From assembly GCA_009835395.1 (NCBI GenBank), contig VXXM01000073.1, forward strand, positions 82-64,081: DNA of 64,000 bases, in the 5' to 3' direction. Shown piece by piece: positions 1-24,936 of the stretch (the first letter of the stretch is position 1; each line of letters begins with the position of its first letter). The notes under the pieces are model-generated. The model was not told the origin of the DNA, searched no databases, and saw only the letters and a program-made list of their open reading frames with translations. Both the position numbers and the translations under genes were made by a program. This DNA is from Acidimicrobiia bacterium. Lineage in GTDB: Bacteria; Actinomycetota; Acidimicrobiia; Acidimicrobiales; CATQHL01.

Positions 1-869
1 TTCTGCTGCACCAGGGTCACGTCGCTGTCGGGGTCGATGCCGTTGCGGCGCAGGCCGGCGAGCAGTTCGAACTCGTTGCCGAAGCCCCAGTTGCCGACGG
101 TCTTGCCGGCCAGGTCCTCGACGCTCTCGATGCCTGAATCGGCCCAGGAAACCTGCAGGGTGGCGCTGCGCTCGAAGATCTGAGCGATGTTCACCACGTC
201 GGCACCCTCCTCGCGCGGCACCAGCCCCCGCGGCACCCACGACACGGCGAAGTCGGCTCCGCCGGAGTCCAGCACCGGGATCGGGACGATCTCCACGCCG
301 CCCTCCAGGATGGTCACGTCGAGGCACAGGTCCTCGTAGAGCCCCTGGTCATGGGCGGCGTAGTAGCCGGCGAACTGCGACTGCGTGAACCACTGCAACT
401 GCACGACCACCTCGGTCAGCCCGTCGCACTCTCCCATCATGGCGGCGGCCTCCGCGGTGGCGGCCTCCGCGGCCTGCTCGGCCGCCTCAGCAGCGCTCCG
501 CGCCTCGTCGGCCTCCTCCTGTGCCGCTGCGGCATCGGCACGTGCGGCCTCCGCGGCCGCCTGTGCGGCCGCCAGGTCGGCCTCGGCCTGGGCGACGGCC
601 GCCTGGTTGCCCTCGGCGGTGGCCTGGGCGAGTGCCGCCGCGGCCGCCGCTGCGTCCGCCGCTGCCTGGGCCTGCCCTGCCTGGGCAGCCGCAGCCGACG
701 CCTCCGCCGACGCAACCCCGGCGTCATCCTGAGCCGACTGCGCCTCACTCATGGCCGCAGCGGCCGTGTCGGACGCGCCGTCGTCGGCAGCGCAGGCCGC
801 CGCGACCAGCCCGATCGCCAGCAGCACCGCCAGCGAGCGCCAAGTAGTTCTCTGTTTCGGAGTCTTCAT
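1..869 (-). CDS. ABC transporter substrate-binding lipoprotein, NMT1/SsuA-like (N-terminal part; gene continues past window start)
   Basis: Absent from the ORF track because it runs off the window edge. Manual minus-strand translation from ATG 869..867 (AGGGGAG just upstream) gives MKTPKQRTTWRSLAVLLAIGLVAAAC, a signal peptide with a lipobox-like AAAC. A ~115-aa Ala/Glu/Gln-rich linker follows, then LTEVVVQLQWFTQSQFAGYYAA...GADFAVSWVPRG, typical of NMT1/SsuA-type binding proteins. It lies directly downstream of the permease/ATPase genes on the same strand. Confidence 0.7.
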   Translation of the reverse strand, partial: MKTPKQRTTWRSLAVLLAIGLVAAACAADDGASDTAAAAMSEAQSAQDDAGVASAEASAAAAQAGQAQAAADAAAAAAALAQATAEGNQAAVAQAEADLAAAQAAAEAARADAAAAQEEADEARSAAEAAEQAAEAATAEAAAMMGECDGLTEVVVQLQWFTQSQFAGYYAAHDQGLYEDLCLDVTILEGGVEIVPIPVLDSGGADFAVSWVPRGLVPREEGADVVNIAQIFERSATLQVSWADSGIESVEDLAGKTVGNWGFGNEFELLAGLRRNGIDPDSDVTLVQQ

Positions 870-954
870 TGTCTCCCCTTTCATGTTTGGTGTCTTCCAC
901 TTGTCTCGGCGAGCGGGTTGCGAGGGCCCCGCCCGGAGATTCTGTTGCGCCCCC

Positions 955-1815
955 TCAGGCCTCCGCTGTGGCGCGGGCGTAGCGGCCCGTGGCGATCCGT
1001 TCGACGATGAGGGCGGCGAAGTAGAGGGCGATGCCGATGATGCTGCCCGCCACGACCGCGGCCCATGCCACGTCGTATCTCGTGAACTGGGCGTTCTGCG
1101 TGATGATGTTGCCCAAGGTGTCCTGGCGGCCGCCGAAGTACTCCACCACGATGGCGGCGATGACCGCCAGCGACGCCACCAGGCGCAGCGCCGTGAAGAA
1201 GAACGGCAGCGCGTTCGGGATGCGGACCGTGCGCATGATGCGCCAGTCGCTGGCGGCATAGGACTGCATGAGTTCGACCTGTTCCTCGTCCACCTCGCTG
1301 AGGCCGCGGGCGGTGTTGATGAACACCGGGAAGAACACCAGCAGCACCACCACGGCCTGGTTGGAGCGCGGCGAGGTGATCCCCAGCCAGTTGTTGAACA
1401 GCGGCGCCAGGGCGATGATCGGGATGGCGTTGATCGCCACCGCCAGCGGGGTGAGGGTCTCGTTCGCGGTCCGGAAGCGAATGACGATCAGCGCGGCGAC
1501 CGCGCCCAGCACGACGCCGCCGGCGAGCCCGCTGAGGATGATGAAGCCCGTGACCCGCGAGGCCATCCACACCTCGGAGATGTTCTCGCCCAGCGCGATG
1601 GCGATCTCGCTGGGACGTGGCAGCACGAAACCCTCCGGATCGGTCGCCCACAGCACCAACTCCCAGAGCCCGAGGGCCCCGGCCCCGAAGACGGCGGGCG
1701 GGAGCCAGGTGCCGCCGCGCAGACGCTTCACCGGGATTCCACCTTCACTCGTGTTCCACCGACCGCAGCGTGCGCCGCACCAGCGAGACGCTGCGGAAGA
1801 ACTCTTCGGTGTCAC
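955..1815 (-). CDS. ABC transporter permease (NitT/TauT-type, BPD_transp_1)
   Basis: 286-aa multi-TM ORF with an EAA-like loop region (NALPFFFTALRLVASLAVIAAIVVEYFGG). Adjacent to the ABC ATPase. Confidence 0.85.
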   Translation of the reverse strand: MTPKSSSAASRWCGARCGRWNTSEGGIPVKRLRGGTWLPPAVFGAGALGLWELVLWATDPEGFVLPRPSEIAIALGENISEVWMASRVTGFIILSGLAGGVVLGAVAALIVIRFRTANETLTPLAVAINAIPIIALAPLFNNWLGITSPRSNQAVVVLLVFFPVFINTARGLSEVDEEQVELMQSYAASDWRIMRTVRIPNALPFFFTALRLVASLAVIAAIVVEYFGGRQDTLGNIITQNAQFTRYDVAWAAVVAGSIIGIALYFAALIVERIATGRYARATAEA

Positions 1816-2560
1816 GCACCTGCGGGGCGCGCTCGGGCAGGTCGATGGGGATCTCGGCGGCGATGCGGGCCGGCCGGGGCGACATCACCGCCACCCTCGT
1901 GGACAGGAACACCGCCTCGGGAATGGAGTGGGTGATGAAGATGACCGTCGTGGCCGTCTCCCGCCAGATCTTCAGCAACTCCGTCTGCATGTACTCGCGG
2001 GTCATCTCGTCGAGGGCGCCGAACGGCTCGTCCATCAGCAGCAGCGACGGCTCGAAGCTGAGCGCGCGTGCGATCGAGACCCGCTGCTGCATGCCCCCGG
2101 AGAGCTCCGCCGGGTAGTGGGAGGCGAACCCGTCGAGGTCCACCAGCTCCAGCATCTCCTTGGCGCGGGCGCGGCGGCGGAACTTCGACCAGCCCATCAA
2201 CTCCAGCGGCAACTCCACGTTGCGGACCGCCGTGCGCCAGTCCAGCAGTCCCGCCGCCTGGAAGACCATCCCGTAGTCGCGCGCCAGGCGGGCCTCCTGC
2301 GCGCTGCGGCCGTTGACGGACAAGTCGCCCGCGGTGGGATCGATCAGCCCGCCCACCAGCCGCAACAGCGTGCTCTTCCCGCAGCCGGAGGGCCCGATGA
2401 TCGACACGAACTCCCGGGGACGCACCGACAGGTCCAACTCGGAAATGGCCGTCACGGCGTTGGCCCGGCCAGGGTTGAACGTCTTCTCGAGGCCCGCTAT
2501 CTCGAGAACCAGATCCTGTGCCACCTCTTCGGCTCCTTCCTGTGGCTCCGCGGCGTTCAC
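1745..2560 (-). CDS. ABC transporter ATP-binding protein
   Basis: C-terminal 271 aa of track ORF 1745..3319. Carries Walker A GPSGCGKST, signature LSGGMQQRV and Walker B LLLMDEPF. Start chosen at GTG 2560, which forms a GTGA overlap with the upstream permease stop (2557..2559). The longer N-terminal extension is Arg/Gly/Pro-rich shadow sequence overlapping the permease. Confidence 0.85.
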   Translation of the reverse strand: MNAAEPQEGAEEVAQDLVLEIAGLEKTFNPGRANAVTAISELDLSVRPREFVSIIGPSGCGKSTLLRLVGGLIDPTAGDLSVNGRSAQEARLARDYGMVFQAAGLLDWRTAVRNVELPLELMGWSKFRRRARAKEMLELVDLDGFASHYPAELSGGMQQRVSIARALSFEPSLLLMDEPFGALDEMTREYMQTELLKIWRETATTVIFITHSIPEAVFLSTRVAVMSPRPARIAAEIPIDLPERAPQVRDTEEFFRSVSLVRRTLRSVEHE

Positions 2561-3456
2561 TGCGCCACGATCCCGCGGCGTGCCAGCAGCAGCCGCTCCG
2601 CCGCGGCCACCACGCCCACCGCCACCAGACCGGTGATGCAGGCGCCGATGATCGCCACGTAGAGCCGCTCGGGCCCGGTGATGTACTTCCCGGCGAAGTC
2701 GAGGATCAGGCGGCCGAGGCCGCCGCGCACGCCGGCGGAGATCTCCCCCACGATGGCGCCGACCACGCTGGCCGTGGCGGCGATGCGCAGCGCGGGGAAC
2801 AGGTACGGCAGCGATGCCGGAAGCTGCAGCCGGCGCAGCACCTGCCGGCGGCCGGCGGCGTAGGACTGCATCAACTCGGAGGCCTCCGGCGACGGTGACT
2901 GGAGTCCCCGCAACCCGTTCACCGCCACGGGGAAGAACGTGAGGTAGGTGGCGATCAGCGAGACCGACATCCAGTCCTTCCACTCCCAGGGCAGGAACTC
3001 GAGGCCGGTGCGCCCCCACACCACCACGATCGGCGCGATGGCGATGAGGGGAACGGTCTGGCTGGCGATCACATACGGCAGCACGCCTCGCTCGGCGCGC
3101 CGCGACTGCAGCAGCACCACGGCGATGGCAAGCCCGATGATCGTCCCGGCGGCGAAGCCCACGGCGGCCTCCCGCAGGGTGAACAGGGCACCGTCGAGGG
3201 TGAGGCGGCCGATGGTGGTGCCCCCCTCGCGGGGCGCCTGACCGAACTCGGCAAGGATGTCCAGCACCGGCGGCATGTTCTTGTCGTCGCTGCGCGGCAG
3301 GAACGACCCCACGACCCACCAGTCCCGCTGCGTGTCGTCGACGGCCTGGCCGAACGCCTTGTAGCCGGTGTACAGCAGCGCCAGCACGACCAGGAAAACC
3401 GCGAAGACGAGCGTGCGGCGGGTCCGGGCCCGGCGGGTCGTCGAACGGTCGGTCAT
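2557..3456 (-). CDS. ABC transporter permease (second membrane subunit)
   Basis: 299-aa multi-TM ORF, paralogous in architecture to 955..1815. First gene of the transporter unit. Confidence 0.85.
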   Translation of the reverse strand: MTDRSTTRRARTRRTLVFAVFLVVLALLYTGYKAFGQAVDDTQRDWWVVGSFLPRSDDKNMPPVLDILAEFGQAPREGGTTIGRLTLDGALFTLREAAVGFAAGTIIGLAIAVVLLQSRRAERGVLPYVIASQTVPLIAIAPIVVVWGRTGLEFLPWEWKDWMSVSLIATYLTFFPVAVNGLRGLQSPSPEASELMQSYAAGRRQVLRRLQLPASLPYLFPALRIAATASVVGAIVGEISAGVRGGLGRLILDFAGKYITGPERLYVAIIGACITGLVAVGVVAAAERLLLARRGIVAQ

Positions 3457-3463
3457 GGTCGTC

Positions 3464-4468
3464 TCAGCCCACTCGCGCCATGGCGTCGATGATCCCGCCG
3501 TAGGCCTCCAGCGTCGCGTCGGGCTGGTCGTGCATCAGGTAGACGGCGAACTGGTCCACGCCCAGTTCGGCCAACTCCCGGAGTCGCGCGACGTGCGCCG
3601 CCGGCGGGCCGAGGAGGCAGAACCGGTCCACGATCTCGTCGGGCACGAAGTCGGTGTGGGTGTTCTCCGAGCGGCCGTGCTCGCTGTAGTCGTATCCCTT
3701 ACGGCCCTCGATGTAGTCGGTGAGCGCCCGCGGCACGCCCGAGCCGTCGCCGCCGTAGCGCGCCACCAGGTCCGCCACATGGTTGCCGACCATGCCGCCG
3801 AACCAGCGCACCTGGTCGCGCTGGTGCGCCAGGTCGTCACCCACGTAGGCGGGCGCGGCCACGCAGATCGTCAACTCGTCGGGGTCGCGCCCGGCCTCGG
3901 CGGCGGCGGCCCGCACCGCCCCGATGGTCCAGGCTGCGATGTCGACGTCGGCCAGCTGCAGGATGAAGCCGTCGGTCTTCGCTCCGCACAGCGCCAGCGC
4001 CCGCGGCCCGTACGCCGCCATCCACATCGGCAGGCTCCCCTCGCGACGCCAGGGGATCCGCAGCTCCTGGCCGTTGTAGGTCACCTCCCGGCCCTCGGCC
4101 AGGCCCTTGATGACACCCATGGCCTCCTCCAGCGTGGCGAGGGTGCACGGCCGGTGGCCGATGACCCGCATGGCCGAGTCGCCGCGCCCGATGCCGCAGA
4201 CGGTGCGCTCGCCGAAGGTGTCGTTGAGCGTGGCGAACAGCGAGGCGGTGACCGTCCAGTCGCGTGTGCCGGGGTTGGTGACCATCGGACCCACCACCAT
4301 GTTCTCGGTGGCCGCCAGCATCTGGGCGTAGATCACGAACGGCTCCTGCCACAACACGTGGGAGTCGAACGTGTAGGCGTGGCTGAAGCCGAGTTCCTCG
4401 GCTCGCTTCGTGAGTCCGACCACTCGCCGCGCGGGCGGATCGGTCTGCAGGACGAGGCCGAAGTCCAT
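3464..4468 (-). CDS. Luciferase-like (LLM-class) flavin/F420-dependent oxidoreductase
   Basis: C-terminal 334 aa of track ORF 3464..5362, starting MDFGLVLQTDPP at ATG 4468 with GAAAGGAG upstream. TIM-barrel LLM pattern (GFSHAYTFDSHVLWQEP, GIGRGDSA, MWMAAYGPRAL). The upstream part of the long ORF overlaps mmsA in another frame and is Pro/Ser/Thr/Arg-rich. Confidence 0.8.
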   Translation of the reverse strand: MDFGLVLQTDPPARRVVGLTKRAEELGFSHAYTFDSHVLWQEPFVIYAQMLAATENMVVGPMVTNPGTRDWTVTASLFATLNDTFGERTVCGIGRGDSAMRVIGHRPCTLATLEEAMGVIKGLAEGREVTYNGQELRIPWRREGSLPMWMAAYGPRALALCGAKTDGFILQLADVDIAAWTIGAVRAAAAEAGRDPDELTICVAAPAYVGDDLAHQRDQVRWFGGMVGNHVADLVARYGGDGSGVPRALTDYIEGRKGYDYSEHGRSENTHTDFVPDEIVDRFCLLGPPAAHVARLRELAELGVDQFAVYLMHDQPDATLEAYGGIIDAMARVG

Positions 4469-4508
4469 GCCGGCTCCTTTCTCCGACGAGGCGATCCCGC
4501 GATATCGC

Positions 4509-5999
4509 TCAGCGATTGCGCGGGAATCCCAGGTCGACGCTGCTCGTGGCCGGGTCGGGCCAGCGGCTGGTGACGACCTTGGCGCGGGTGTAGAAGTGGA
4601 TGCCCTCGGGGCCGTACATGTGCGTGTCGCCGAACAGCGACCCCTTCCAACCGCCGAAGGAGTAGTACGACACAGGCACGGGGATCGGCACGTTGATGCC
4701 CACCATGCCGGCGACGGCCTCGAACTGGAAGCGCCGGGCCGCACCCCCGTCGCGGGTGAAGATTGCGGCGCCGTTGCCCCACGGGTTGTCGTTGACGAGC
4801 CGCACCGCCTCGTCGTAGCCGTCGACCCGCACCACGCTGAGCACCGGCCCGAAGATCTCGTCGCGGTAGCAGGCCATGTCGGGAGTGACGTGGTCCAGCA
4901 GCGACACGCCCAGGAAGTAGCCGTCGAGGTTGGCGGCATCAGGGCGCCCGTCGCGCACGACGGCGGCGCCCTCTGCCCGGCCGCTGTCGATGTAGCCCGC
5001 CACGCGGTCACGGTGCTCGGCGGTGATGAGCGGCCCCATCTCTGCGTCGGGATCCTCGAGGCCGTCGCCGATGCGGATCTTGTCGAGGCGGGCGTCGATG
5101 GCGGCCACCAGCGGCTCGGCCACGCTGCCGACCGCCACGACGGCGGAGATGGCCATGCAGCGCTCGCCGGAGGATCCGTAGGCGGCGCTGACAGCGGCGT
5201 CGGCGGCGAGTTCCACGTCCGCGTCGGGCAGCACGACCATGTGGTTCTTGGCCCCGCCGAGCGCCTGCACCCGCTTGCCGTTGCGCGTGCCGGCCTCGTA
5301 GATCGCCCGCGCCACCGGCGTGGAGCCCACGAAGCTGACGGCGGCGATGTCGGGGTGCTCAAGCAGCCGGTCGACCGCGACCTTGTCGCCCTGTACGAGG
5401 TTCACGACGCCGGGCGGCAGACCGGCCTCGGCCAGGAGCTCCATCGTGAACAGCGGCGCCGAGGGATCTTTCTCGGAGGGCTTCAGCACGAACGTGTTGC
5501 CGCAGGCGATGGCGTTGGGGTACATCCACATGGGCACCATCGCCGGGAAGTTGAACGGCGTGATGCCGGCCACCACGCCGAGCGGCTGGCGGATGGAGTA
5601 GACGTCCACACCGCTGGAGGCCTGTTCCGTGTGCTCGCCCTTCAGCAGCTGTCCCACCCCGCAGGCGAACTCGATGTTCTCGAGGCCGCGGCTCACCTCG
5701 CCGGCGGCGTCGGCCAGCACCTTGCCGTGCTCGGCGGTCAGCAGCCGGGCGATGTCGTTGCGGTGACGCTCGACGAGTTCCCTGTAGCGGAACAGGATCT
5801 CGCTGCGGCGGCTCACGGGCACCTCGCGCCAGAACCCGAAGGCCTCGCGCGCCGAGGCCACCGCGGCGTCCACCTCGGCGACCGTGGCGAAGTCCACCTC
5901 GCCGGTCTGGGCCCCGGTGGCCGGGTTGTAGACGGGGCCACGGCGGTCGCCGGTGCCCGGAGTCAGCCTCCCGTCGATCCAGTGATGAATCCTCTTCAT
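4509..5999 (-). CDS. mmsA: Methylmalonate-/malonate-semialdehyde dehydrogenase (CoA-acylating)
   Basis: 496 aa. ALDH motifs FVLKPSEKDP, catalytic Cys in GERCMA, and the MmsA-typical C-terminal SYYSFGGWKGSLFGD. Confidence 0.9.
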   Translation of the reverse strand: MKRIHHWIDGRLTPGTGDRRGPVYNPATGAQTGEVDFATVAEVDAAVASAREAFGFWREVPVSRRSEILFRYRELVERHRNDIARLLTAEHGKVLADAAGEVSRGLENIEFACGVGQLLKGEHTEQASSGVDVYSIRQPLGVVAGITPFNFPAMVPMWMYPNAIACGNTFVLKPSEKDPSAPLFTMELLAEAGLPPGVVNLVQGDKVAVDRLLEHPDIAAVSFVGSTPVARAIYEAGTRNGKRVQALGGAKNHMVVLPDADVELAADAAVSAAYGSSGERCMAISAVVAVGSVAEPLVAAIDARLDKIRIGDGLEDPDAEMGPLITAEHRDRVAGYIDSGRAEGAAVVRDGRPDAANLDGYFLGVSLLDHVTPDMACYRDEIFGPVLSVVRVDGYDEAVRLVNDNPWGNGAAIFTRDGGAARRFQFEAVAGMVGINVPIPVPVSYYSFGGWKGSLFGDTHMYGPEGIHFYTRAKVVTSRWPDPATSSVDLGFPRNR

Positions 6000-6063
6000 G
6001 TCGGCTCCCTGCTCATCGATCGTTCATCGCTCCCCTGCCCCGGTGGCAAGTTCGCCCACAGGC

Positions 6064-7479
6064 TCACAGGAGGTACTGCGACAGGCTGCGCCGCAGGTAC
6101 CGGCCGTCGCCGGGGCTGCCCAGGTAGTTGCCGCCGTCGACCACCACCTGGCCACGTGACAGCACCGTCTCCACCGCGCCGGCGATCTCGAAGCCCTCGA
6201 AACACGAGTAGTCCATGTTCATGTGGTGCGTCTCGGCGCTGATGCGGCTCGTGGTGGTCGGGTTGTAGATCACCACGTCGGCATCGGCACCGGGGGTGAT
6301 GCTGCCCTTGCGGGGATACAGCCCGAACATGCGCGCCGGGGTGGTGGCGCAGGTCTCCACCCAACGCTCGAGTGACAGCTCGCCCTGGACCACGCCCTGG
6401 TAGATGAGGTCCATGCGGTGCTCCACCACGCCCATCCCGTTGGGGATGAGGCGGAAGTCGTCGCGTCCCAGTTCCTTCTGCTCCTTCATGCAGAACGGAC
6501 AGTGGTCGGTGGCGACCACGCACAGGTCGTTGGTGCGCAGTCCCCGCCACAGGTCTGCGTGGTGGGTCTCGTGGCGGCTGCGCAGCGGCGGCGAACAGAC
6601 GTAGCCGGCGCCGGCGAATCCGGGGGCACCGAGATGCTCCTCCAGGTTCAGGTACAGGTACTGCGGACAGGTCTCGGCGAACACGTTGTAGCCCTCGTTG
6701 CGGGCGGCGGCCACGTGCGCCAGGGCGTCGGAGGCCGACAGGTGCACGAAGTAGACCGGCGTGCCCGCCACCAGCGCCAACTGGATGGCCCGGTAGGTGG
6801 CCTCGCCCTCCAGCCGGGGCGGCCGGGTGATGCCGTGGTACACCGGGTCGGTCTGGCCCCGGGCGGCGGCCTGGGCGGCGATGACGTCGATGGCGATGCC
6901 GTTCTCGGCGTGCATCATGATGAGGCCGCCGTTGTGGTGCGCCTGCTGCATGGCCTGCAGGATCTTGCCGTCGTCGCTGTAGAGCACCCCCGGGTAGGCC
7001 ATGAACAGCTTGAAGCTGGTGATGCCGTCGTTGACGAGCGTGTCCATCTCCTTCAGCGACCGCTCGTCGATGCCGCCCAGGATCATGTGGAAGCCGTAGT
7101 CGATGGCGCACTGCCCCTCGGCCTTGGCGAACCAGGCGTCGAGGCACTCCCGCACGTCCTCGCCCTCGCGCTGCACGGCGAAGTCCACGATCGTGGTGGT
7201 GCCGCCGTGGGCGGCGGCGCGGGTGCCGGTCTCGAAGGTGTCCGAGGCGTAGGTGCCGCCGAAAGGCAACTCCATATGGGTGTGGACGTCCACGCCGCCG
7301 GGCACCACGTAGCGGTCGGTGGCGTCGATGACGTGCGCCTCACCGCCGCGCCGCAGGCTCTCGACGATCTCGCTGCCGGGGGCGACCACGGCCTCGATCA
7401 CCTCCCCCGACACCACCACGTCGGCCCGGACGCGTCCTGTGGCGCTGACGACCGTCCCGTCGGCGATGAGCGTGCGCAT
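6064..7479 (-). CDS. Dihydropyrimidinase / D-hydantoinase
   Basis: 471 aa from ATG 7479 (AGGAGGA upstream; the track ORF extends further in shadow sequence). Metal-binding GGVDVHTHM, FKLFMAY (carboxylated-Lys region), MMHAENG, VHLS, TDHCPF. Confidence 0.9.
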   Translation of the reverse strand: MRTLIADGTVVSATGRVRADVVVSGEVIEAVVAPGSEIVESLRRGGEAHVIDATDRYVVPGGVDVHTHMELPFGGTYASDTFETGTRAAAHGGTTTIVDFAVQREGEDVRECLDAWFAKAEGQCAIDYGFHMILGGIDERSLKEMDTLVNDGITSFKLFMAYPGVLYSDDGKILQAMQQAHHNGGLIMMHAENGIAIDVIAAQAAARGQTDPVYHGITRPPRLEGEATYRAIQLALVAGTPVYFVHLSASDALAHVAAARNEGYNVFAETCPQYLYLNLEEHLGAPGFAGAGYVCSPPLRSRHETHHADLWRGLRTNDLCVVATDHCPFCMKEQKELGRDDFRLIPNGMGVVEHRMDLIYQGVVQGELSLERWVETCATTPARMFGLYPRKGSITPGADADVVIYNPTTTSRISAETHHMNMDYSCFEGFEIAGAVETVLSRGQVVVDGGNYLGSPGDGRYLRRSLSQYLL

Positions 7480-7559
7480 GGCGTCCTCCTGTTCAGTGAT
7501 CGGCGGGGCGGCGCCCCAGGTGCTGTTCGGTCGTGGTGGCGGCCGGCCCTCCTCGTGCT

Positions 7560-8843
7560 CTAGCGCAGCTCCGCCGCCGCGGCCGCCAGGATCTCGACCG
7601 CCTCGTCGATCTCGGCGTCGGAGACGCACAGCGGCGGGGCGATGCGCAGGACGTTGCCGTAGAGCCCGCCCTTTCCGATCAGCAGGCCACGCCGGTGCGC
7701 CCCCTCGTGCATCGCTGCTGCCGCCGCCGCGTGCGGTTCGCGGCCACCCGGTTGGTTGAATTCCATGGCCAGCATCAGGCCGCGGCCGCGCAGCTCGGCG
7801 ATCTCCGGCGTCGCCTCGACCACCGGCTCGAGGCCGAGTCGCAGGCGGTTGCCCATCTTGGCGGCATTGGTCTGCAGATCGTGGTCCAGGAGGTACTCCA
7901 GGTTGGCCAGCGCCCCCGCGCAGACCAGGGGGTTGCCGCCGAAAGTGGAGATGGAGTTGGCGCCGAGACTGTCCATGAGTTCGGCGCGCGCCACCACACC
8001 GCCCAGCGCCAGGCCGTTTCCGACGCCCTTGGCGAAGGTCAGGAAGTCGGGCACGATGTCGTGGGCCTCATAGCCCCAGAAGTGCTCGCCGGTGCGCCCC
8101 CACCCCGTCTGCACCTCGTCGCTGATGAAGAGGATGCCGCTCTCGTCCAGCACCTCCTTCACAGCGCCGAAGAAGCCGTCAGGAGGCATGGCGAACCCGC
8201 CTACGCCCTGGATCGGCTCGGCGATCAACGCGGCGACGTGCCCGGTCGTGCACATGTCGATGACCTCGCGCAGATCCTGGGTGCAGGCGGTCGTATAGGA
8301 GTCATCGTCGTGGTCGGGCCAGGGGCTGCGCATCCGGTAGCCGCCGTGCACGAAGTTGACCGACAGGCCCGAGAGGCGCGACGCCGACCAGTAGCGGTTG
8401 CCGGTCACCGCCTGCGTGCTGAACGACCGGCCGTGGTAGCTGTTGCGCAGCGCCAGGATCTGATGGCTGGCGCGGTAGTTGGTGGCCAGCAGCAGGGCGG
8501 CGTCGTTGGCCTCGGTGCCCGAGGTCGTGAAGAACACCTTGGCATCGTCGATGCCGCTGAGGCCGGCGATCTTCTCCGCCAGAGCCACCATCGGCTCGAT
8601 CAGATAGAGCGTGGAGGTGTGGAGCATCCTCCCGGCCTGGGTCCGGATGGCGTCGATCACCTCCGGCACGTTGTAGCCCGTCATCGTCGTGAGGATCCCG
8701 CCGAAGAAGTCCAAGTGGCAGCGGCCCTCGCTGTCCCACACACGGCAGCCCTCGCCGCGTGTCAGCTCGATCGGCTCCTCGTAGTACAGGGCGAGCCAGT
8801 CCGGCATCACGCTGCGATGGCGAGCCAGCAATTCGTCGGGCAC
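7560..8843 (-). CDS. Class-III (omega) aminotransferase, beta-alanine/aminobutyrate-type
   Basis: 427 aa. FTTSGTEAND, EPIQGVGG, DEVQTGWGRTG, and the PLP-Lys in FAKGVGNG. Confidence 0.85.
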   Translation of the reverse strand: MPDELLARHRSVMPDWLALYYEEPIELTRGEGCRVWDSEGRCHLDFFGGILTTMTGYNVPEVIDAIRTQAGRMLHTSTLYLIEPMVALAEKIAGLSGIDDAKVFFTTSGTEANDAALLLATNYRASHQILALRNSYHGRSFSTQAVTGNRYWSASRLSGLSVNFVHGGYRMRSPWPDHDDDSYTTACTQDLREVIDMCTTGHVAALIAEPIQGVGGFAMPPDGFFGAVKEVLDESGILFISDEVQTGWGRTGEHFWGYEAHDIVPDFLTFAKGVGNGLALGGVVARAELMDSLGANSISTFGGNPLVCAGALANLEYLLDHDLQTNAAKMGNRLRLGLEPVVEATPEIAELRGRGLMLAMEFNQPGGREPHAAAAAAMHEGAHRRGLLIGKGGLYGNVLRIAPPLCVSDAEIDEAVEILAAAAAELR

Positions 8844-8872
8844 GAGCCTCTCCCTTCAGTCGGGGTACCGCG

Positions 8873-9715
8873 CTAGCCGGCCACCAGCGGGTCGTAGGCG
8901 TCGGGTCGGCGGTCCCGGTAGAACGCCCACTGATTGCGCACCTCGCCGATCAGATCCAGGTCGAGGTCGCGGACGATGACCTCGGGCTCGGTGTCGGAGG
9001 CCACTTCCCCCACGAACTGGCCGCGCGGGTTGGCGAAGTAGGACGTGCCGTAGAAGTCGTTGTCGCCCAGCGGCTCGACGCCGACCCGGTTGATGGCGCC
9101 GACGTAGTACATGTTCGCCGCCGCCGAGGCGGTCTGCTCGAGCTTCCAGAGGTAGGCCGACAGGCCCCGGCTGGTGGCCGAAGGGTTGAAGACGATCTGC
9201 GCCCCGCCGAGACCGAGGGCGCGCCAGCCCTCGGGGAAGTGGCGGTCGTAGCAGATGTACACGCCCACCTTCCCGACCGCGGTGTCGAAGACCGGGTAGC
9301 CCAGGTTGCCGGGCCGGAAGTAGTACTTCTCCCAGAAGCCCTTCACCTGGGGGATGTGGGTCTTGCGGTACTTGCCCAGGTAGGTGCCGTCGGCGTCGAT
9401 GACCGCGGCGGTGTTGTACAGCACCCCGGGCTGCTCCTCCTCGTATAGCGGGAGGACCATGACCATGCCCAGTTCGGCGGCCAGTTCACAGGCCAGCTTC
9501 GTCGTGGGGCCGTCGGGCACCGCCTCGGCCGTGGCGTAGAACGAGTCGTCCTGCACCTGACAGAAGTAAGGGCCGTTGAACAGCTCCTGGAAGCAGATCG
9601 CCTGCGCCCCCTGCTCGGCGGCGGCCCGGGCCCAGGCCATGTGCGCCTCGACCATCGAGTCGGCGTCTCCCGTCCAGGACTGCTGCACCAGAGCTGCCCG
9701 CACGACGTTGTCCAT
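8873..9715 (-). CDS. Beta-ureidopropionase-like carbon-nitrogen hydrolase (nitrilase superfamily)
   Basis: 280 aa. CN-hydrolase catalytic triad context: CFQELF (Glu), YRKTHIP (Lys), VYICYDRHFPE (Cys). Clustered with dihydropyrimidinase. Confidence 0.85.
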   Translation of the reverse strand: MDNVVRAALVQQSWTGDADSMVEAHMAWARAAAEQGAQAICFQELFNGPYFCQVQDDSFYATAEAVPDGPTTKLACELAAELGMVMVLPLYEEEQPGVLYNTAAVIDADGTYLGKYRKTHIPQVKGFWEKYYFRPGNLGYPVFDTAVGKVGVYICYDRHFPEGWRALGLGGAQIVFNPSATSRGLSAYLWKLEQTASAAANMYYVGAINRVGVEPLGDNDFYGTSYFANPRGQFVGEVASDTEPEVIVRDLDLDLIGEVRNQWAFYRDRRPDAYDPLVAG

Positions 9716-9912
9716 GACGTCTCCGATCTACCACCCGCCGCCGGTGCCGGGCGCGGGACCGTCCGTATGCGACCCGCTACCGCTGCCGGAACGGGAGCCG
9801 AATAATACCACCCGGCATATCCGGCCAAATACGGACGCCTGAGAACATCCGAACGCGCCGCGAATTCGGCGCCAGACGTGCGTCGGGTCATCGTGACGGG
9901 CATCATGGTGCA

Positions 9913-10755
9913 ATGAGTGTGCGCGTCGCCGAGTCCCTCGAGGAGGTGTGCAGCCTGCTGGCGGCCGATCCGGCGACCAGCCTGCTGGCCGGTGGGACCG
10001 ACTTCATGGTGGAGGTCAACTACAACCACCGGCGCCCGAGCTCGGTGGTCGTCATCGACAGGGTTCCGGAGTTGACCGGCTGGCGGCGGCACAACGGCCG
10101 CGTGGAGTTGGGTGCGGCGATGACTTACGCCGAGATGGAGCATCCGCTCTTCGCGGCCTACGTTCCGGCACTGGCGCAGGCGGCCAGGACCGTCGGGTCG
10201 CCCCAGATCCGCAACGCCGGCACGCTCGGCGGCAATCTGGCGACGGCGTCGCCGGCCGGCGACACGCTGCCCCCGCTGGCGGCTCTGGACGCCCGCATCA
10301 CCATCTGTTCGGTGCGCGGCACCCGGGAGGTTGGCCTCGACGAGTTGATCGTGGGCCCCAAGCAGAACACGCTGGCACCCGACGAGGTGATCCGCAGCGT
10401 GACCGTGCCGGTGGTCGACGGCCCGCAGGAGTTCCTGAAAGTCGGCACCCGCAACGCCATGGTCATCTCGGTGGCCACGGTGGCGCTGGTGCTGGACCGC
10501 GCCCGGCGCAGTGTGCACCTTGCGCTGGGGTCGGTGGCCCCGGTGCCCGTGCGCGCCACCGAAGCCGAGGAGTGGATTGCCGGCGTGGTCGACTGGGACG
10601 CACCCGAGGTTCCCCTCGACGACGTCCTGACTCGCTTCGGCGAGTTGGCGGCAGCGGCCTCCGTCCCCATCGACGATCACCGCAGCACCGCCGATTACCG
10701 CCGCCATGCCGTGGCCGTCATGGCGCGCCGCGCACTGGCGAGAGTGCTCTCATGA
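9913..10755 (+). CDS. FAD-binding (medium, CoxM/XdhB-like) subunit of a molybdopterin-dehydrogenase-family enzyme
   Basis: 280 aa. LLAGGTDFMVEVN and GSPQIRNAGTLGGNLATASPAGD motifs of FAD_binding_5. Confidence 0.8.
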   Translation: MSVRVAESLEEVCSLLAADPATSLLAGGTDFMVEVNYNHRRPSSVVVIDRVPELTGWRRHNGRVELGAAMTYAEMEHPLFAAYVPALAQAARTVGSPQIRNAGTLGGNLATASPAGDTLPPLAALDARITICSVRGTREVGLDELIVGPKQNTLAPDEVIRSVTVPVVDGPQEFLKVGTRNAMVISVATVALVLDRARRSVHLALGSVAPVPVRATEAEEWIAGVVDWDAPEVPLDDVLTRFGELAAAASVPIDDHRSTADYRRHAVAVMARRALARVLS

Positions 10756-11264
10756 GCGAGGATCGAAGCGTCGCCGGCGAGGCCACGCTGCACTACACGC
10801 TGCATGTCAACGGCAGCGATCGCGACGTCGCCGATGCCTGGCTCGGCGAGAGCCTGCTCTACGTGCTCAGGGAACGTCTCGGCCTGCCCGGCACCAAGAA
10901 CGCCTGCGACCAGGGCGAGTGCGGATCCTGCACCGTGCTGGCCGATGGCCTGCCGGTGTGCTCCTGCATGATGCTGGCCGCCGCCGCGGTCGGGCGGGAC
11001 ATCGTGACCGTGGAGGGACTCGGCGACGACGGCGAGTTGACCGATGTCCAGCAGGCGTTCGTGGACCACGGTGCCGTGCAGTGCGGCTTCTGCACCCCTG
11101 GCCTGATCGTGGCCGCCGACCACCTACTGTCGGTCAACCCGGAACCGACGGAATTGGAGATCCGCGAGGCCATCTCGGGCAACCTGTGCCGTTGCACCGG
11201 CTACGGCAGGGTGATCGCCGCCATCGCCGGCGTGGCCGAGGAGCGCGCAGCCTCGACCGGCTGA
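10752..11264 (+). CDS. (2Fe-2S)-binding small (CoxS/XdhC-type) subunit
   Basis: 170 aa within track ORF 9948..11264. ATG 10752 forms an ATGA overlap with the upstream stop. Cys clusters CDQGECGSC and QCGFCTPG ... CRCTGY. Confidence 0.85.
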   Translation: MSEDRSVAGEATLHYTLHVNGSDRDVADAWLGESLLYVLRERLGLPGTKNACDQGECGSCTVLADGLPVCSCMMLAAAAVGRDIVTVEGLGDDGELTDVQQAFVDHGAVQCGFCTPGLIVAADHLLSVNPEPTELEIREAISGNLCRCTGYGRVIAAIAGVAEERAASTG

Positions 11265-11321
11265 GCCGCACCGGCTCGGCGGGCGCGATCGGCCCGTCGA
11301 TCGGCTCCCTAGCCTGACGGC

Positions 11322-13199
11322 ATGGACTGGGGGCTGCACGCGGCTCTGGGGCGCGACGCCGAGGCGGTGAAGGGGCGCAACCTGGACCGCGCCGTGGTAC
11401 GGCGGGTGCTGGGTTTCGCCGCTCCGTACAAGCGCATGATCACGCTGTTCGTGATCGCCATCCTGCTCGGCGCCCTGTTGAGCCAGGTGCCGGCGCTGCT
11501 TTTCCGGGAGATCATCGACGACGCCATCGTCAACTCCGACCGGGGCTACGTGAACCTGCTGGCGGGATTGATCCTGGCGGCCGCCTTCGCCGAGGCGCTG
11601 CTGGCCTTCGGCGAGCGCTGGTGGTCGGCGCGCATCGGCGAGGGGCTCATCTTCGACCTGCGGGTGGCCCTGTACGACCACGTCCAGCGCATGGGGGTGT
11701 CGTTCTTCACCAGCGTGCAGACCGGCGCGCTGATCAGCCGCCTCAACAACGACGTCATCGGCGCCCAGCGGGCCATGACCGGCACGCTCGGACAACTGGT
11801 CTCGAACCTCTGCATTCTGCTGATCACACTGCTGACGATGTTCATCATCCTGGACTGGCGGCTCACGCTGCTGGCCCTGGCGCTGCTGCCGGTGTTCGTG
11901 ATCCCCGCCAAGCGCGTCGGGCGGCGGCTGCAGGCGCTGACGCGGCAGCAGATGGAGCACAACGCCGACATGAACACGCTCATGACCGAGCGGCTGGGCG
12001 TGGCGGGCGCGCTGCTGGTGAAGCTGTTCGGGCGCCACGACGGCGAGCGGGAGGCGTTCGCCGACAGGGCCGGGAAAGTGCGGGACCTGGGCGTGCGCAC
12101 CGCCATGTACGCCCGGGTGTTCTTCATCGCCCTGACTTTGCTGGGGGCCGTGGGAACGGCCGCGGTCTACTGGGTCGGTGGCCACCTGGCGATCTCGGGT
12201 TCGGTCACGATCGGCACCCTCGCTGCCATGGGCCTGCTCGTGATCCGCATCTACATGCCCCTCACGAGCCTCACCAACGCCCGTGTCGACATCATGACGG
12301 CGATCGTGTCCTTCGAGCGGGTCTTCGAGGTGCTGGACACGCCGAACGCCGTGCCGGACCGGCCCGGAGCCGGCACCCTGCGGCGCCCCCGGGGCCGGGT
12401 GGAGTTCCGGGACGTGCGGTTCACCTACCCTCCCACCGACACGGCCGCTCTGGCGTCGCTGACCCCCGCCGCACCCGATCGGCCGACCGACGGCGACAAG
12501 CCCGCCGGCCCGGCGCTGGACGGCGTGAGCCTCGATGTGTCCCCGGGCGAGTTGGTGGCGCTGGTGGGACCGTCCGGCGCCGGCAAGACGACGCTGACGG
12601 CTCTGCTGCTACGGCTCTACGACCCTGACGAGGGCACCATCGCCGTCGACGGCCACAACCTGCGCGACGTCACCGGCGAGTCACTGCGGGCCGCCGTCGG
12701 CGTCGTGCCGCAGGATCCGCATCTGTTCCACGACACGGTGGAGGCGAACCTGCGCTACGCCCGACCCGACGCCGACCGTGAAGAGATCGCCGCCGCCTGC
12801 CGGGCCGCCGGGATCCTGGATTTGATCGAAGGCCTGCCACAGGGATTCGACACGCTGGTGGGTGAGCGCGGCTACCGCCTCTCCGGCGGCGAGAAGCAGC
12901 GCCTCGCCATCGCCCGCATGCTGCTGAAAGACCCGGCCATCGTCATCCTGGACGAGGCCACCAGCCATCTCGACAGCGAGAACGAGGCGGCCGTCCAGGA
13001 GGCGCTGGCGGCGGCGCTGGGTGGTCGAACGTCGTTCGTCATCGCCCACCGTCTCTCCACGATCACCTCGGCCGACCGGATCGTCGTGCTGGACGAGGGT
13101 CGCCTGGTGGAGCAGGGCCGCCACGATGACCTGCTCGCAGCCGGCGGGCTCTACGCCAACCTCTACCGCACGCTGGTTCGCTCCGAGGGCGCCCTGTGA
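11322..13199 (+). CDS. ABC exporter, fused transmembrane + ATP-binding protein (MsbA/multidrug type)
   Basis: 625 aa. Six-TM N-terminal domain, Walker A GPSGAGKTT, signature LSGGEKQRLAIAR, Walker B ILDEATSHLD. Confidence 0.85.
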   Translation: MDWGLHAALGRDAEAVKGRNLDRAVVRRVLGFAAPYKRMITLFVIAILLGALLSQVPALLFREIIDDAIVNSDRGYVNLLAGLILAAAFAEALLAFGERWWSARIGEGLIFDLRVALYDHVQRMGVSFFTSVQTGALISRLNNDVIGAQRAMTGTLGQLVSNLCILLITLLTMFIILDWRLTLLALALLPVFVIPAKRVGRRLQALTRQQMEHNADMNTLMTERLGVAGALLVKLFGRHDGEREAFADRAGKVRDLGVRTAMYARVFFIALTLLGAVGTAAVYWVGGHLAISGSVTIGTLAAMGLLVIRIYMPLTSLTNARVDIMTAIVSFERVFEVLDTPNAVPDRPGAGTLRRPRGRVEFRDVRFTYPPTDTAALASLTPAAPDRPTDGDKPAGPALDGVSLDVSPGELVALVGPSGAGKTTLTALLLRLYDPDEGTIAVDGHNLRDVTGESLRAAVGVVPQDPHLFHDTVEANLRYARPDADREEIAAACRAAGILDLIEGLPQGFDTLVGERGYRLSGGEKQRLAIARMLLKDPAIVILDEATSHLDSENEAAVQEALAAALGGRTSFVIAHRLSTITSADRIVVLDEGRLVEQGRHDDLLAAGGLYANLYRTLVRSEGAL

Positions 13200-17780: not shown

Positions 17781-18932
17781 TTACTCAGCAGCCTCGTAGG
17801 CCGGCTTCCGGGCCAGGAAGCAGTACAAGGGCGTGAAGATCCCTGCCTTCCCCCCGCTGACATACGCCTCAGCCGATCGATTCATGAGGCCGATGACCTT
17901 GGCCGAACCCCGCGGGAAGACTCGCACGATCTCCGCCAACCTGATCACTTCCTGAACGGCTCTGCGGCCCGCCGGGACGCGGACGAGCGCACGGTGCCAA
18001 CCCCCGTAGCGGCCCTCCATGGGCGCGTACCAGGGAACCTCGCCGACATTCCTGTCCGTGGCCTCCAGAACCTCGAATCCGGCCGACTCGAGCGCCTGAT
18101 TGACATCTGCGAAGGTGGGGATCTCCTTCAACACGATGTACCGCATGAGGTCCTGCTTGATGGACTGGTGTTCGGTGGAGGTCGGATCGAAATCGTCGGT
18201 CAGGCACATTTCCTGGCCCCAGAACAGCGCGCCGGGCCGCAGGAGGCGGAAGATCTCCGCGAATGCCTCCACCCGGTCGGGGGCATAGCACGTCGACTCA
18301 ATGGCATAGCCCCTGTCGAATGAGGCAGCCTCGATGCTGCTCATATCCATGATGTTGGACTTGAGGCAGTCCACCTTCCCATCCAGGCCGGCTTCGCGAT
18401 TGCGAACTCTGACCTGCTCGAGTTGGTGATCGTTGTTGTTGATACCAACCACGCTGACGCCTGCCTCCGCTGCAAGACGGCGCATCAGTGCGCCGAATCC
18501 GCACCCCACATCGACAACCTGCATCCCCTCCTGAAGCCTCAGCTTGTCGATCATCACCCGCTGGTGCCGAGCAATGGCCTGCGCCAACGTCTCGTCGTGC
18601 GCCAAGGGCGCAAACTGCAACGATTCACTCCAGCCGAACAACATGAATCTGTTGCAGAGGTCGTAATAGTCATTGACTGTTGTGGTGTGATCGTAGGCTG
18701 GGGAATCCGCGTGGCCGGCGCTGGAACGCTCGATCCAGCTCTCGATGTCCGCCACGACTGCCGGGACATCCCGGTCTCGATACGCGGCGCGCAGGGAACC
18801 GGCGAGCCCGCCGGGCGCCATCAACGACCTGCTCGCACGTCGGAGTACGGGATCACTAAAGCCGGTATTCTTCGCGAGGGATGCCAACGATGTCAATCCG
18901 GCCCACCGAGCCCGCCAACGCCCTGTCGCCAC
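17781..18932 (-). CDS. Sterol 24-C-methyltransferase (ERG6/SMT1) family SAM-dependent methyltransferase
   Basis: Three SMT signature regions: YYDLCNRFMLFGWSESLQFAP (region I, cf. YEYGWG.SFHFA); VDVGCGFGALMRR (SAM site); YAIESTCYAPD (cf. YAIEATCHAP). The C-terminal Sterol_MT_C-like tail ends GIFTPLYCFLARKP (cf. IFTPMYFFVARKP). Start uncertain: GTG 18932 has GGAG abutting it, and ATG 18821 is a plausible alternative. Confidence 0.8.
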   Translation of the reverse strand: MATGRWRARWAGLTSLASLAKNTGFSDPVLRRASRSLMAPGGLAGSLRAAYRDRDVPAVVADIESWIERSSAGHADSPAYDHTTTVNDYYDLCNRFMLFGWSESLQFAPLAHDETLAQAIARHQRVMIDKLRLQEGMQVVDVGCGFGALMRRLAAEAGVSVVGINNNDHQLEQVRVRNREAGLDGKVDCLKSNIMDMSSIEAASFDRGYAIESTCYAPDRVEAFAEIFRLLRPGALFWGQEMCLTDDFDPTSTEHQSIKQDLMRYIVLKEIPTFADVNQALESAGFEVLEATDRNVGEVPWYAPMEGRYGGWHRALVRVPAGRRAVQEVIRLAEIVRVFPRGSAKVIGLMNRSAEAYVSGGKAGIFTPLYCFLARKPAYEAAE

Positions 18933-19987
18933 CTCCTTTCCCCGAGGGCTGGTACTTCCTCGCGAGCCGACGAGCCGTGGAGAAGGCGAAGCTCATACAG
19001 AAGACCTGGATGGGCGAGAGCATCATCATCTGGTGCGACGACGACGGACGCATCTGCGTAGCCGAGTCCCATTGCCCGCACCTCGGCGCGGATCTGGGGC
19101 CCGAAGCGGGCGGGCGTGTCTGCGACGGCCGGCTCGTCTGCCCGTTCCACGGCTTCGAGTACGACACCGGCGGCCAGTGCGTGGCCACTCCCTTCGCGCC
19201 CGCACCGAAGGCCGCCCGACTGCGGGTCTTCGAGACGACCGAAGTCCTAGGCCTCATCTTCGCCTGGTGGGGAATCGGAGGACGGCCGCCGCAATGGAAC
19301 CTGCACCCCGACCCGCTGGACCAGACCGGCTGGAGCAGCCTCAGCATCCAGACCCTCCGCTTTCCCGGCCATCCTCAGGAGACGGCCGAGAACGCCGTCG
19401 ACCTGGCCCACTTCCGCTACGTCCACGGCTACCACAACGTGAGTCGCATCAAGCCTGTGTCCGTGGACGGGCACTGTCTCCTGAGCCGGTTCGACTTCGC
19501 GAGCAAGCGCACGATCGCAGGATTCCCGTACTTGACGCTCAATATGACCGCCACCACCCACGTCTGGGGGCTCGGCTGCTCGTTCGTCGAGGTCCGCGAG
19601 CACTCGACGCCCTTCGACATGCGCTTCTGGGTCCTGGCGACGCCGGTCGACGGAGAACTCATCGACTTGTCGCTGGTCACGCAGGTGGGGGGGATGAGCG
19701 ACCCGAAGCGCCGGATCGCAGGCCTGGGATTCCTCCCGGTCCCGCTGCGTGCGCGCGTCATGAACCGGATTCTGACTCCCATGCAGAAGCGGGACGTCCT
19801 GCAGGACGTGAAGATCTGGAGCCGCAAGCAGCACCTGCGCCGCCCGCGCCTGGCCCGTTCCGACGGCGAGATCATGCGGTACCGGGCCTATTGCCGCCAG
19901 TTCTACCCCGCCCCGCCCGGTGGTAACCACAACGACAAGGGTGATCACGAGGCCCGCGAGAAGGCCCGCGAGTCCCAGCTGCAGTAG
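18890..19987 (+). CDS. Rieske [2Fe-2S] non-heme-iron oxygenase, KshA/Neverland-like
   Basis: Rieske motif CPHLG...x17...CPFHGF. Mononuclear-iron motif ENAVDLAHFRYVHG. KshA-family C-terminal DVKIWSRKQ. ATG 18890 sits 9 nt after GAGGG; track start 18881 is also possible. Divergent from the methyltransferase. Confidence 0.85.
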   Translation: MSIRPTEPANALSPPPFPEGWYFLASRRAVEKAKLIQKTWMGESIIIWCDDDGRICVAESHCPHLGADLGPEAGGRVCDGRLVCPFHGFEYDTGGQCVATPFAPAPKAARLRVFETTEVLGLIFAWWGIGGRPPQWNLHPDPLDQTGWSSLSIQTLRFPGHPQETAENAVDLAHFRYVHGYHNVSRIKPVSVDGHCLLSRFDFASKRTIAGFPYLTLNMTATTHVWGLGCSFVEVREHSTPFDMRFWVLATPVDGELIDLSLVTQVGGMSDPKRRIAGLGFLPVPLRARVMNRILTPMQKRDVLQDVKIWSRKQHLRRPRLARSDGEIMRYRAYCRQFYPAPPGGNHNDKGDHEAREKARESQLQ

Positions 19988-20079
19988 CCGGACCCGCCCA
20001 TAGTACGCGTTATGTCGTAGACGACCGGTCCCGCGGTGTGTCCCGGGGCTTCAACGGGCGTCAGGTACAGTCGTCTGGC

Positions 20080-22560: not shown

Positions 22561-22602
22561 CGGCGTGGTGAGCAGACCCGCCTCGGCGGGGGTGCGGCGC
22601 CC

Positions 22603-24633: not shown

Positions 24634-24859
24634 CAGAGTTGTTCTCCGTACACCATCCCACTGCCCCCGTCGTGTGAGGGTCGGGCAACTCGGACAGTGT
24701 ACTTTCTTTCTGCTCACGCGAACCATCGCTTCGACTCCTAGTGGGCCGCGGACGGACTCGTCCATGCCGCCGTCGCCTGAAGGACCCCGGTCGGGAGGGG
24801 TTCCAGCGGCCGTTGCTAGCCTGATCCGTCGCGGCCCCGGCGTTCTGCGGGGCCCCGGC

Positions 24860-24936
24860 GGGGCTGTAGCTCAGTTGGCTAGAGCACTTGCTTTGCAAGC
24901 AAGGGGTCGTGGGTTCGAGTCCCATCAGCTCCACCA
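24860..24936 (+). tRNA. tRNA-Ala (anticodon TGC), CCA encoded
   Basis: Manual cloverleaf. Acceptor GGGGCTG/CAGCTCC with the G3:U70 alanine identity pair. Anticodon loop cTTTGCAa, T-loop TTCGAGT, 3' ACCA. Confidence 0.9.

Follow-up and report, generated by a model that had tools for sequence, protein, structure and literature searches.

A TIGR03842-family luciferase-like oxidoreductase as a candidate F420H2-dependent uracil/thymine reductase in a pyrimidine catabolism operon of an Acidimicrobiia bacterium

The locus described here raises the question of how the pyrimidine ring is reduced where an operon encodes the later steps of reductive pyrimidine catabolism and no dihydropyrimidine dehydrogenase accompanies them. 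It lies in a stretch of 64,000 nucleotides (nt) from an Acidimicrobiia bacterium (assembly GCA_009835395.1, contig VXXM01000073.1, positions 82 to 64,081), hereafter the window, whose start is 81 nt from the contig end. The G+C content of the window is about 70%, and genes were called by combining GC3 frame analysis (G+C at third codon positions) with the list of open reading frames (ORFs). Positions 3-9715 hold nine minus-strand genes, all in the same direction and with gaps of -4 to 80 nt, among them a gene at 3464-4468 (minus strand) for a 334-residue oxidoreductase of the luciferase-like monooxygenase (LLM) class and the TIGR03842 family. This enzyme is probably an F420H2-dependent uracil/thymine reductase that acts as a non-orthologous replacement of dihydropyrimidine dehydrogenase. 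A replacement of this kind, dependent on F420 or on flavin, was put forward in an original prediction made from the window sequence, and the computational checks reported below favour its F420 form, which they support as a prediction.

The operon begins with a CN-hydrolase of the nitrilase superfamily (8873-9715, minus strand like all nine genes; 280 residues; PF00795, 219 bits), followed by a class-III (omega) aminotransferase (7560-8843; 427 residues; PF00202, 310 bits), a dihydropyrimidinase/D-hydantoinase (6064-7479; 471 residues; TIGR02033, 546 bits with a cut-off of 393), a CoA-acylating malonate/methylmalonate-semialdehyde dehydrogenase (4509-5999; 496 residues; TIGR01722, 713 bits with a cut-off of 448), the LLM oxidoreductase, and the genes of an ATP-binding cassette (ABC) importer. 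These family matches bear out the earlier claim of a co-directional cluster with an ABC importer, and the coordinates claimed for the LLM gene are exact. The dihydropyrimidinase represents step 2 of the Pyd pathway (PydB), and the GabT-like aminotransferase and the TIGR01722 dehydrogenase represent steps 4 and 5. The nearest solved structures of the aminotransferase are GabT/PuuE 4-aminobutyrate aminotransferases (214-232 bits), and the protein is predicted to be the beta-alanine/beta-aminoisobutyrate transaminase of step 4. For step 3, the beta-ureidopropionase of the original prediction is a putative one, as the CN-hydrolase is related to the eukaryotic type of that enzyme (2vhh, 188 bits; 6ftq, 170 bits) and equally to N-carbamoylputrescine amidase; the protein is not an M20-type PydC, and no curated NCBIfam model passes, the top one being that for N-carbamoylputrescine amidase (251 bits, cut-off 410). 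Among other solved proteins, an N-carbamoylputrescine amidohydrolase (5h8i) scores 206 bits and D-carbamoylases score only 101-106 bits, and the CN-hydrolase is predicted to be an N-carbamoyl-beta-alanine/beta-ureidoisobutyrate amidohydrolase. The LLM gene has an AGGAG ribosome-binding site 7 nt ahead of its ATG, the first permease gene of the importer begins 7 nt past its stop codon, and its product is the sole redox enzyme of the operon that has no assigned role.

An enzyme of the PreA, PydA or PydAc type for the first, reductive step was not found by a PF01180 (DHO_dh) search of the window or of the genome it comes from (3.16 Mb in 95 contigs, 94.4% complete). PF01180 has no match on the window's contig, and the whole-genome search returns one real match, a class-1B PyrD on contig C49 that scores 314 bits with NF005574 (cut-off 269) and 90 bits with the PreA model NF006183 (cut-off 335). 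This PyrD has a dihydroorotase-like gene 5 kb upstream and therefore belongs to biosynthesis. As PyrD is the sole PF01180 protein in the genome, the absence of a PydA/PreA-type enzyme noted earlier for the cluster extends to the 94.4%-complete genome. The LLM protein itself carries PF00296 as its only domain and no PF01180.

The LLM family was profiled together with three other families across 401 Actinomycetota genomes, each at least 90% complete, using curated cut-offs. TIGR03842 passes its cut-off in 88 genomes, the dihydropyrimidinase family TIGR02033 in 122, CofD in 237 and PreA in 2. Dihydropyrimidinase is present in 85 of the 88 LLM carriers, the three LLM-only genomes being fragmented assemblies of 350-600 contigs in which the LLM gene sits on a small contig, and where the two genes share a contig, 72 of 78 pairs lie within 8 kb of each other. 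PreA passes in none of the 88 carriers. CofD passes in 84 of the carriers, and three of the four exceptions hold truncated or frameshifted CofD pieces. The tallies take in the unpublished genomes G088 (LLM, dihydropyrimidinase and CofD all present), G120 (dihydropyrimidinase only) and G001, G048, G316, G392 and G398 (no LLM and no dihydropyrimidinase); when these are omitted, each count shifts by at most one and the conclusions are the same.

This profile bears on the possibility that an unrecognised reductase encoded elsewhere, such as an Old Yellow Enzyme (OYE)-type protein or another LLM paralog, reduces uracil and that the TIGR03842 enzyme acts on a related substrate, e.g., a modified pyrimidine. 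The genome holds at least 22 LLM paralogs, and at 94% completeness some of its genes may be absent from the assembly. However, no other candidate has a genomic link to the pathway, whereas TIGR03842 is linked to it in all but three of its carriers, and a reductase elsewhere is quite unlikely.

The arrangement of genes around the LLM narrows its place in the pathway. A scan for relatives, taking one genome per species, found 596, and the best 80 loci (69-94% identity) were analysed by scoring neighbours within 8 kb of the LLM gene by tblastn with the window proteins. The hosts include Acidimicrobiia metagenome-assembled genomes, Streptomyces, Lentzea, Amycolatopsis, Kutzneria, Actinoplanes and Micromonospora, among others. 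In 75 of the 80 loci a dihydropyrimidinase gene runs in the same direction as the LLM gene, and contig ends cut three of the other five; the CN-hydrolase is co-directional in 73, and the triad of CN-hydrolase, dihydropyrimidinase and LLM is found in 73. Co-occurrence of the LLM subfamily with dihydropyrimidinase, which the original prediction named as a check on its proposal, is therefore seen both in the loci and in the carrier genomes. An aminotransferase lies within the same distance in 27 loci and a semialdehyde dehydrogenase in 25; in 39 loci the triad stands with neither of them, which associates the LLM with ring opening and not with the downstream steps. The link to the pathway is kept in members of only 43-51% identity, where P0019 shows translational coupling to a CN-hydrolase, P0018 is flanked by an amidohydrolase and a CN-hydrolase and has an aminotransferase and an NMT1 ABC system near, and P0014 shows the same dehydrogenase-LLM-ABC order as the window. 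Two further members, P0004 and P0041, are on short metagenome contigs in which no context is readable.

The triad-only loci speak against a role of the LLM further down the pathway, as an F420-dependent alcohol/aldehyde oxidoreductase that would, for example, interconvert malonate or methylmalonate semialdehyde and 3-hydroxypropionate or 3-hydroxyisobutyrate in a PydE-like manner. Such a role is suggested by the position of the window LLM directly after the semialdehyde dehydrogenase, and by the occurrence of the alcohol/carbonyl enzymes Fgd, Adf and hydroxymycolic acid dehydrogenase among its fold matches. With no aminotransferase or semialdehyde dehydrogenase near the LLM in these 39 loci, and with Mer reductases rather than dehydrogenases as its closest relatives, a downstream function is very unlikely.

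The transporters associated with the LLM vary between loci. An ABC importer comes after the LLM in about 22 of the 80; Kutzneria and Lentzea instead have, ahead of the CN-hydrolase, an NCS1 permease of the family for cytosine, uracil and hydantoin. These varying transporters (NMT1 ABC, NCS1) fit pyrimidines as the imported compounds. In the window, the importer comprises a NitT/TauT-type permease (2557-3456; PF00528, 69 bits), an ATPase (1745-2560; PF00005, 107 bits; TauB-like NF008421, 223 bits, below cut-off) whose GTG start overlaps the stop codon of the first permease gene, a second permease (longest ORF 955-1815; PF00528, 93 bits) whose true start is probably the GTG at 1731, and an NMT1/THI5-type substrate-binding lipoprotein (3-884; PF09084, 84 bits) whose 3′ end is cut by the contig end. 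The lipoprotein has weak solved relatives in ThiY (formylaminopyrimidine-binding, 3ix1, 30 bits) and THI13, of which the first binds a pyrimidine and the second is an enzyme of pyrimidine biosynthesis. A low-complexity linker of about 110 residues, extremely rich in Ala, Glu and Gln, separates its lipobox from the binding domain.

The NMT1 ABC and NCS1 transporter families also carry hydantoins, and TIGR02033 takes in D-hydantoinases too. Both points would suit a cluster that imports already-reduced rings (dihydrouracil, dihydrothymine or 5-substituted hydantoins), an option raised in the original prediction itself, in which the LLM would be an accessory enzyme for a substituted ring or a side product and no first reductive step would take place. 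However, import of reduced rings leaves unexplained the near-inseparability of an F420-type oxidoreductase from dihydropyrimidinase and CN-hydrolase across the phylum. The CN-hydrolase is also nearer to the beta-ureidopropionases than to the D-carbamoylases, the aminotransferase and the semialdehyde dehydrogenase suit pyrimidine-derived beta-amino acids, and no hydantoin racemase was noticed. These observations make the import of reduced rings unlikely, and reduction of uracil or thymine by the LLM is the preferred explanation of the cluster.

Genomes with a dihydropyrimidinase and no TIGR03842 member could appear to contradict the association. Four of these 37 genomes were examined, namely G351, G109, G228 and G277, the first three at loci L098 (G351:C43:1-10000), L099 (G109:C142:10000-20000) and L100 (G228:C9:53000-68000). 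In these three, a HyuA-type hydantoinase occurs with genes of the reductive uric-acid pathway, including an SsnA-like aminohydrolase in G351, YgeW-like carbamoyltransferases in G109 and G228 and a diaminopropionate ammonia-lyase in G228, and all three hold a distinct Mer-like F420 LLM that scores 188 bits with the Mer model and 95-105 bits with TIGR03842. G277, which is from a family without CofD, has the canonical YgeY and YgeW. The TIGR02033 matches of urate clusters belong to another pathway, and many apparent exceptions to the association are therefore removed. Replacement of the PydA-like reductase (YgfK/UacX) by an F420 LLM has been predicted for urate clusters of Chloroflexota only (PMC12507026). 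From their gene content, the clusters of G351, G109 and G228 look like a reductive uric-acid pathway in which an F420 LLM replaces YgfK/UacX, and most of the dihydropyrimidinase-only genomes examined have a reductive urate cluster, some with this different LLM. The explanation of such genomes by a second LLM clade in urate clusters is new from the present analysis.

The LLM protein is assigned to TIGR03842 (F420_CPS_4043), the subfamily check named in the original prediction, with 569.3 bits over residues 2-326 of 334 (cut-off 295.45; PF00296, 200 bits). This is an F420 LLM family with no known function, described as a ‘hypothetical equivalog’. Its members score at least 422 bits in the 401-genome search and other LLMs at most 190 bits, and the boundary of the family is therefore clear. 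The solved sequence relatives of the window protein are Mer (81-89 bits), then F420-dependent hydroxymycolic acid dehydrogenase, Fgd1 and Adf, every significant one down to E 1e-5 being an F420 enzyme. An AlphaFold model made from a 30-sequence alignment (mean pLDDT 92.2) was compared with solved structures by Foldseek, and the top 21 matches are all F420-dependent LLMs, with Mer first (TM 0.77-0.80); FMN-dependent luciferases and monooxygenases come after these.

In the HMMER alignment to Mer, GPMVTNP of the window protein (residues 60-66) corresponds to the jMer loop GPGVTNP; within the family, Val63 and Thr64 do not vary, and Asn65 and Pro66 hardly do. The invariant Asp97 is aligned to jMer Asp96, and jMer Glu6 is aligned to Val6, Val being also the family consensus. 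In jMer, the loop carries a Gly61-Val62 non-prolyl cis-peptide under the F420 ring, Asp96 contacts the pyrimidine ring of the pterin in a ternary model, and Glu6, at the end of beta-1, is catalytic, the E6Q variant keeping 0.4% activity (bioRxiv 10.1101/2023.09.18.558202). The F420-type fold neighbours and the conserved GP-x-VTNP loop lead us to predict that the LLM uses F420, and the protein resembles a Mer-lineage F420 enzyme from which the residue specific to methylene-pterin activation has been lost, and it is not itself a Mer. Nine over-long TIGR03842-like representatives (380-529 residues) were inspected as possible gene fusions and rejected; they carry PF00296 alone, provide no Rosetta-stone fusion and are probably miscalled high-GC ORFs.

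A supply of F420 in the organism, another check named in the original prediction, is found in part. CofD (306 bits), CofE (251 bits) and CofC (123 bits) are present in the genome above their cut-offs (CofD/CofE at C41:117828-119500, CofC at C65:4095-4655), as is an NADPH:F420 oxidoreductase, Fno (175 bits, C24:10842-11465); Fgd was not found in the genome, and nor were CofG and CofH, which are considered below.

In the pathway proposed for the operon, the NMT1-type ABC transporter would import uracil or thymine, Fno would reduce F420 with NADPH, and in the LLM F420H2 would donate a hydride to the pyrimidine C6, with a proton going to C5, to give 5,6-dihydrouracil or 5,6-dihydrothymine. The dihydropyrimidinase would then open the ring, the CN-hydrolase would free beta-alanine or beta-aminoisobutyrate together with NH3 and CO2, the GabT-like aminotransferase would yield malonate or methylmalonate semialdehyde, and the dehydrogenase would convert the semialdehyde to acetyl- or propionyl-CoA. 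For the LLM, we infer the substrate, the direction of the reaction, the use of F420 and the hydride/proton chemistry, and for the other enzymes the specificity. As an obligate hydride carrier whose potential is near that of NAD(P)H, F420 would make the proposed reaction energetically comparable to that of NADPH-dependent dihydropyrimidine dehydrogenase. The electron donor of PydA varies by lineage and is either NAD(P)H or ferredoxin (PMC7332683). For the mureidomycins, a putative F420/FMN oxidoreductase is genetically required for reduction of the uracil C5-C6 bond (PMC10714638). A literature search, with subscription-only papers outside its scope, returned no function for TIGR03842 and no F420-dependent dihydropyrimidine dehydrogenase.

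Several points weigh against the assignment of uracil/thymine reduction to the LLM. Synteny shows membership of a pathway and not which step the LLM performs, and the function of TIGR03842 members is a prediction from sequence. The Fisher p of 4e-53 obtained from the phyletic profile is descriptive only, as the genomes are related and their independence is overstated. The mureidomycin oxidoreductase failed in its in-vitro assay (PMC10714638). The search of the window's genome returned no FO synthase (CofG/CofH or FbiC), CofG giving no match and CofH 28 bits; in the same order, CofH passes its cut-off in 24 of 31 genomes, and three others are likewise without it. The supply of F420 would need uptake of FO unless the gene is in an assembly gap, and either may apply, the former if the bacterium is an FO-scavenging sponge symbiont. 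This lack of an FO synthase is the main genome-specific caveat. Two divergent family members also occur in other contexts. P0044 lies beside MaoC and an acyl-CoA ligase, and P0037 (399 bits; gene 3204-4223 on the metagenome contig of locus L089) has as neighbours a 446-residue LLM, an isochorismatase-family protein, an amidase and a PCMT-type methyltransferase, a layout reminiscent of Rut-like chemistry and not of the Pyd pathway.

The Rut pathway has a pyrimidine oxygenase, RutA, that is also an LLM-fold enzyme, and the isochorismatase family represented next to P0037 is that of RutB. Both would be in keeping with a TIGR03842 enzyme that works in a RutA-like manner, as an oxygenase that depends on flavin (FMNH2) and either cleaves the pyrimidine ring or hydroxylates it. 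However, the 16 NCBIfam matches of the window LLM at E 1e-5 include no RutA model, its sequence and fold neighbours are F420 enzymes, and the carriers of the family co-occur with CofD. The operon is also without a flavin reductase, and oxidative ring cleavage would make the dihydropyrimidinase redundant. A RutA-like oxygenase is for these reasons highly improbable, and F420H2-dependent reduction of uracil or thymine is retained as the probable function of the LLM. The Rut pathway is cited in PMC12507026 along with the urate clusters.

Upstream of the operon, the divergent intergenic region at 9716-9912 was aligned with that of three close relatives and presumably holds the operon promoter. A palindrome-like element, GGACGGTCCCG, lies about 45 nt upstream of the CN-hydrolase ATG and is conserved in the three relatives; it could be an operator, and an adjacent regulator gene is absent. 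A GGAG ribosome-binding site precedes the same ATG. An Rfam search of 1-12000 returned no family, and no match to the sigma-70 consensus was found. Terminator-like matches are no commoner than expected by chance and were set aside. Of the words sampled from window positions 1-9900, 40-95% occur in sponge metagenomes of three studies, one run showing no differences, and the sponge metatranscriptome X20 includes contigs that are 91-94% identical over most of the operon genes and come from a related strain. X20 was rejected as evidence of expression, as the contigs are those of a relative, the long pieces listed do not include the LLM and carry-over of DNA is possible.

On the other side of the intergenic region, a CoxM-like molybdopterin-dehydrogenase FAD-binding subunit (9913-10755, plus strand) and a CoxS-like 2Fe-2S subunit (10752-11264, plus strand) are encoded divergently from the operon and are followed not by a molybdenum large subunit but by an ABC exporter (11322-13199). 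The CoxM/CoxS pair was considered as a part of the system and rejected, as its position beside the cluster is conserved only in the four closest relatives. Further along, positions 18860-24870 form a possible steroid/lipid-handling neighbourhood with a KshA-like Rieske oxygenase (18860-19987), an MMPL/sterol-sensing-domain transporter (19945-22560) and, on the minus strand, a P450 fused to a GPP34 domain (22603-24870).

If the proposed function is correct, it fills a long-standing hole, that of Actinomycetota which have dihydropyrimidinase and carbamoyl-amidohydrolase and almost never a dihydropyrimidine dehydrogenase (PreA in 2 of 401 genomes), and gives a function to a ‘hypothetical equivalog’ family that is widespread. 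Coenzyme F420, familiar chiefly from methanogenesis, antibiotic biosynthesis and xenobiotic/prodrug reduction, would gain a core role in nucleotide catabolism, and a simple, single-subunit and iron-sulfur-free uracil reductase would become available for biocatalysis. We lean slightly towards a broader interpretation in which TIGR03842 enzymes form a third class of dihydropyrimidine dehydrogenase, unrelated by descent to the others and dependent on F420H2, and pyrimidine catabolism is F420-dependent in most of the Actinomycetota that bear the pathway. Taken with the distinct Mer-like LLM of reductive urate clusters, these enzymes would make Mer-like F420 LLMs a general means of reductive dearomatisation of N-heterocycles where PydA-like flavo-iron-sulfur enzymes are absent. 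The window contributes an operon for all five proposed steps, complete with an ABC importer of the NMT1 type, in an Acidimicrobiia genome that is sponge-associated and apparently lacks FO synthase.

Among known systems, PydA or PreT-PreA (EC 1.3.1.1/1.3.1.2) and PydAc share with the LLM the proposed reaction, the position at the head of the pathway and the kind of gene cluster (PMC7332683). PydA is built from a DHO_dh FMN barrel and Fe-S clusters, whereas the fold of the LLM is an unrelated luciferase-like barrel and its hydride would presumably come from free F420H2. Mer (1Z69, 8QPL) is the nearest solved relative of the LLM (89 bits, TM 0.77-0.80) and has the GP-x-VTNP loop and the Asp in common with it. 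The two differ in that their identity is 22-25%, the catalytic Glu6 of Mer is Val6 in the LLM, the LLM fails the Mer models NF002619 (116 bits, cut-off 276) and TIGR03555 (99 bits, cut-off 349), and the context of Mer is one-carbon (C1) metabolism whereas that of the LLM is pyrimidine catabolism. The Mer-like LLM of urate clusters (PMC12507026) resembles the window in placing an F420 LLM where a PydA-like reductase would be, beside a hydantoinase-family enzyme, but it belongs to another clade and has SsnA, YgeW and diaminopropionate ammonia-lyase as neighbours; its function is likewise predicted. The SSGG-03002/NpsU proteins of mureidomycin and napsamycin synthesis (PMC10714638), whose fold class is unstated and which are compared with the LLM by description only, act on a nucleoside-antibiotic intermediate and are encoded in biosynthetic clusters. 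RutA has the LLM fold in common with the candidate reductase and attacks uracil as the first catabolic step, as is proposed for the latter, but it does so by FMNH2- and O2-dependent ring cleavage together with RutB-G, whereas the neighbours of the LLM in the window are of the reductive Pyd type.

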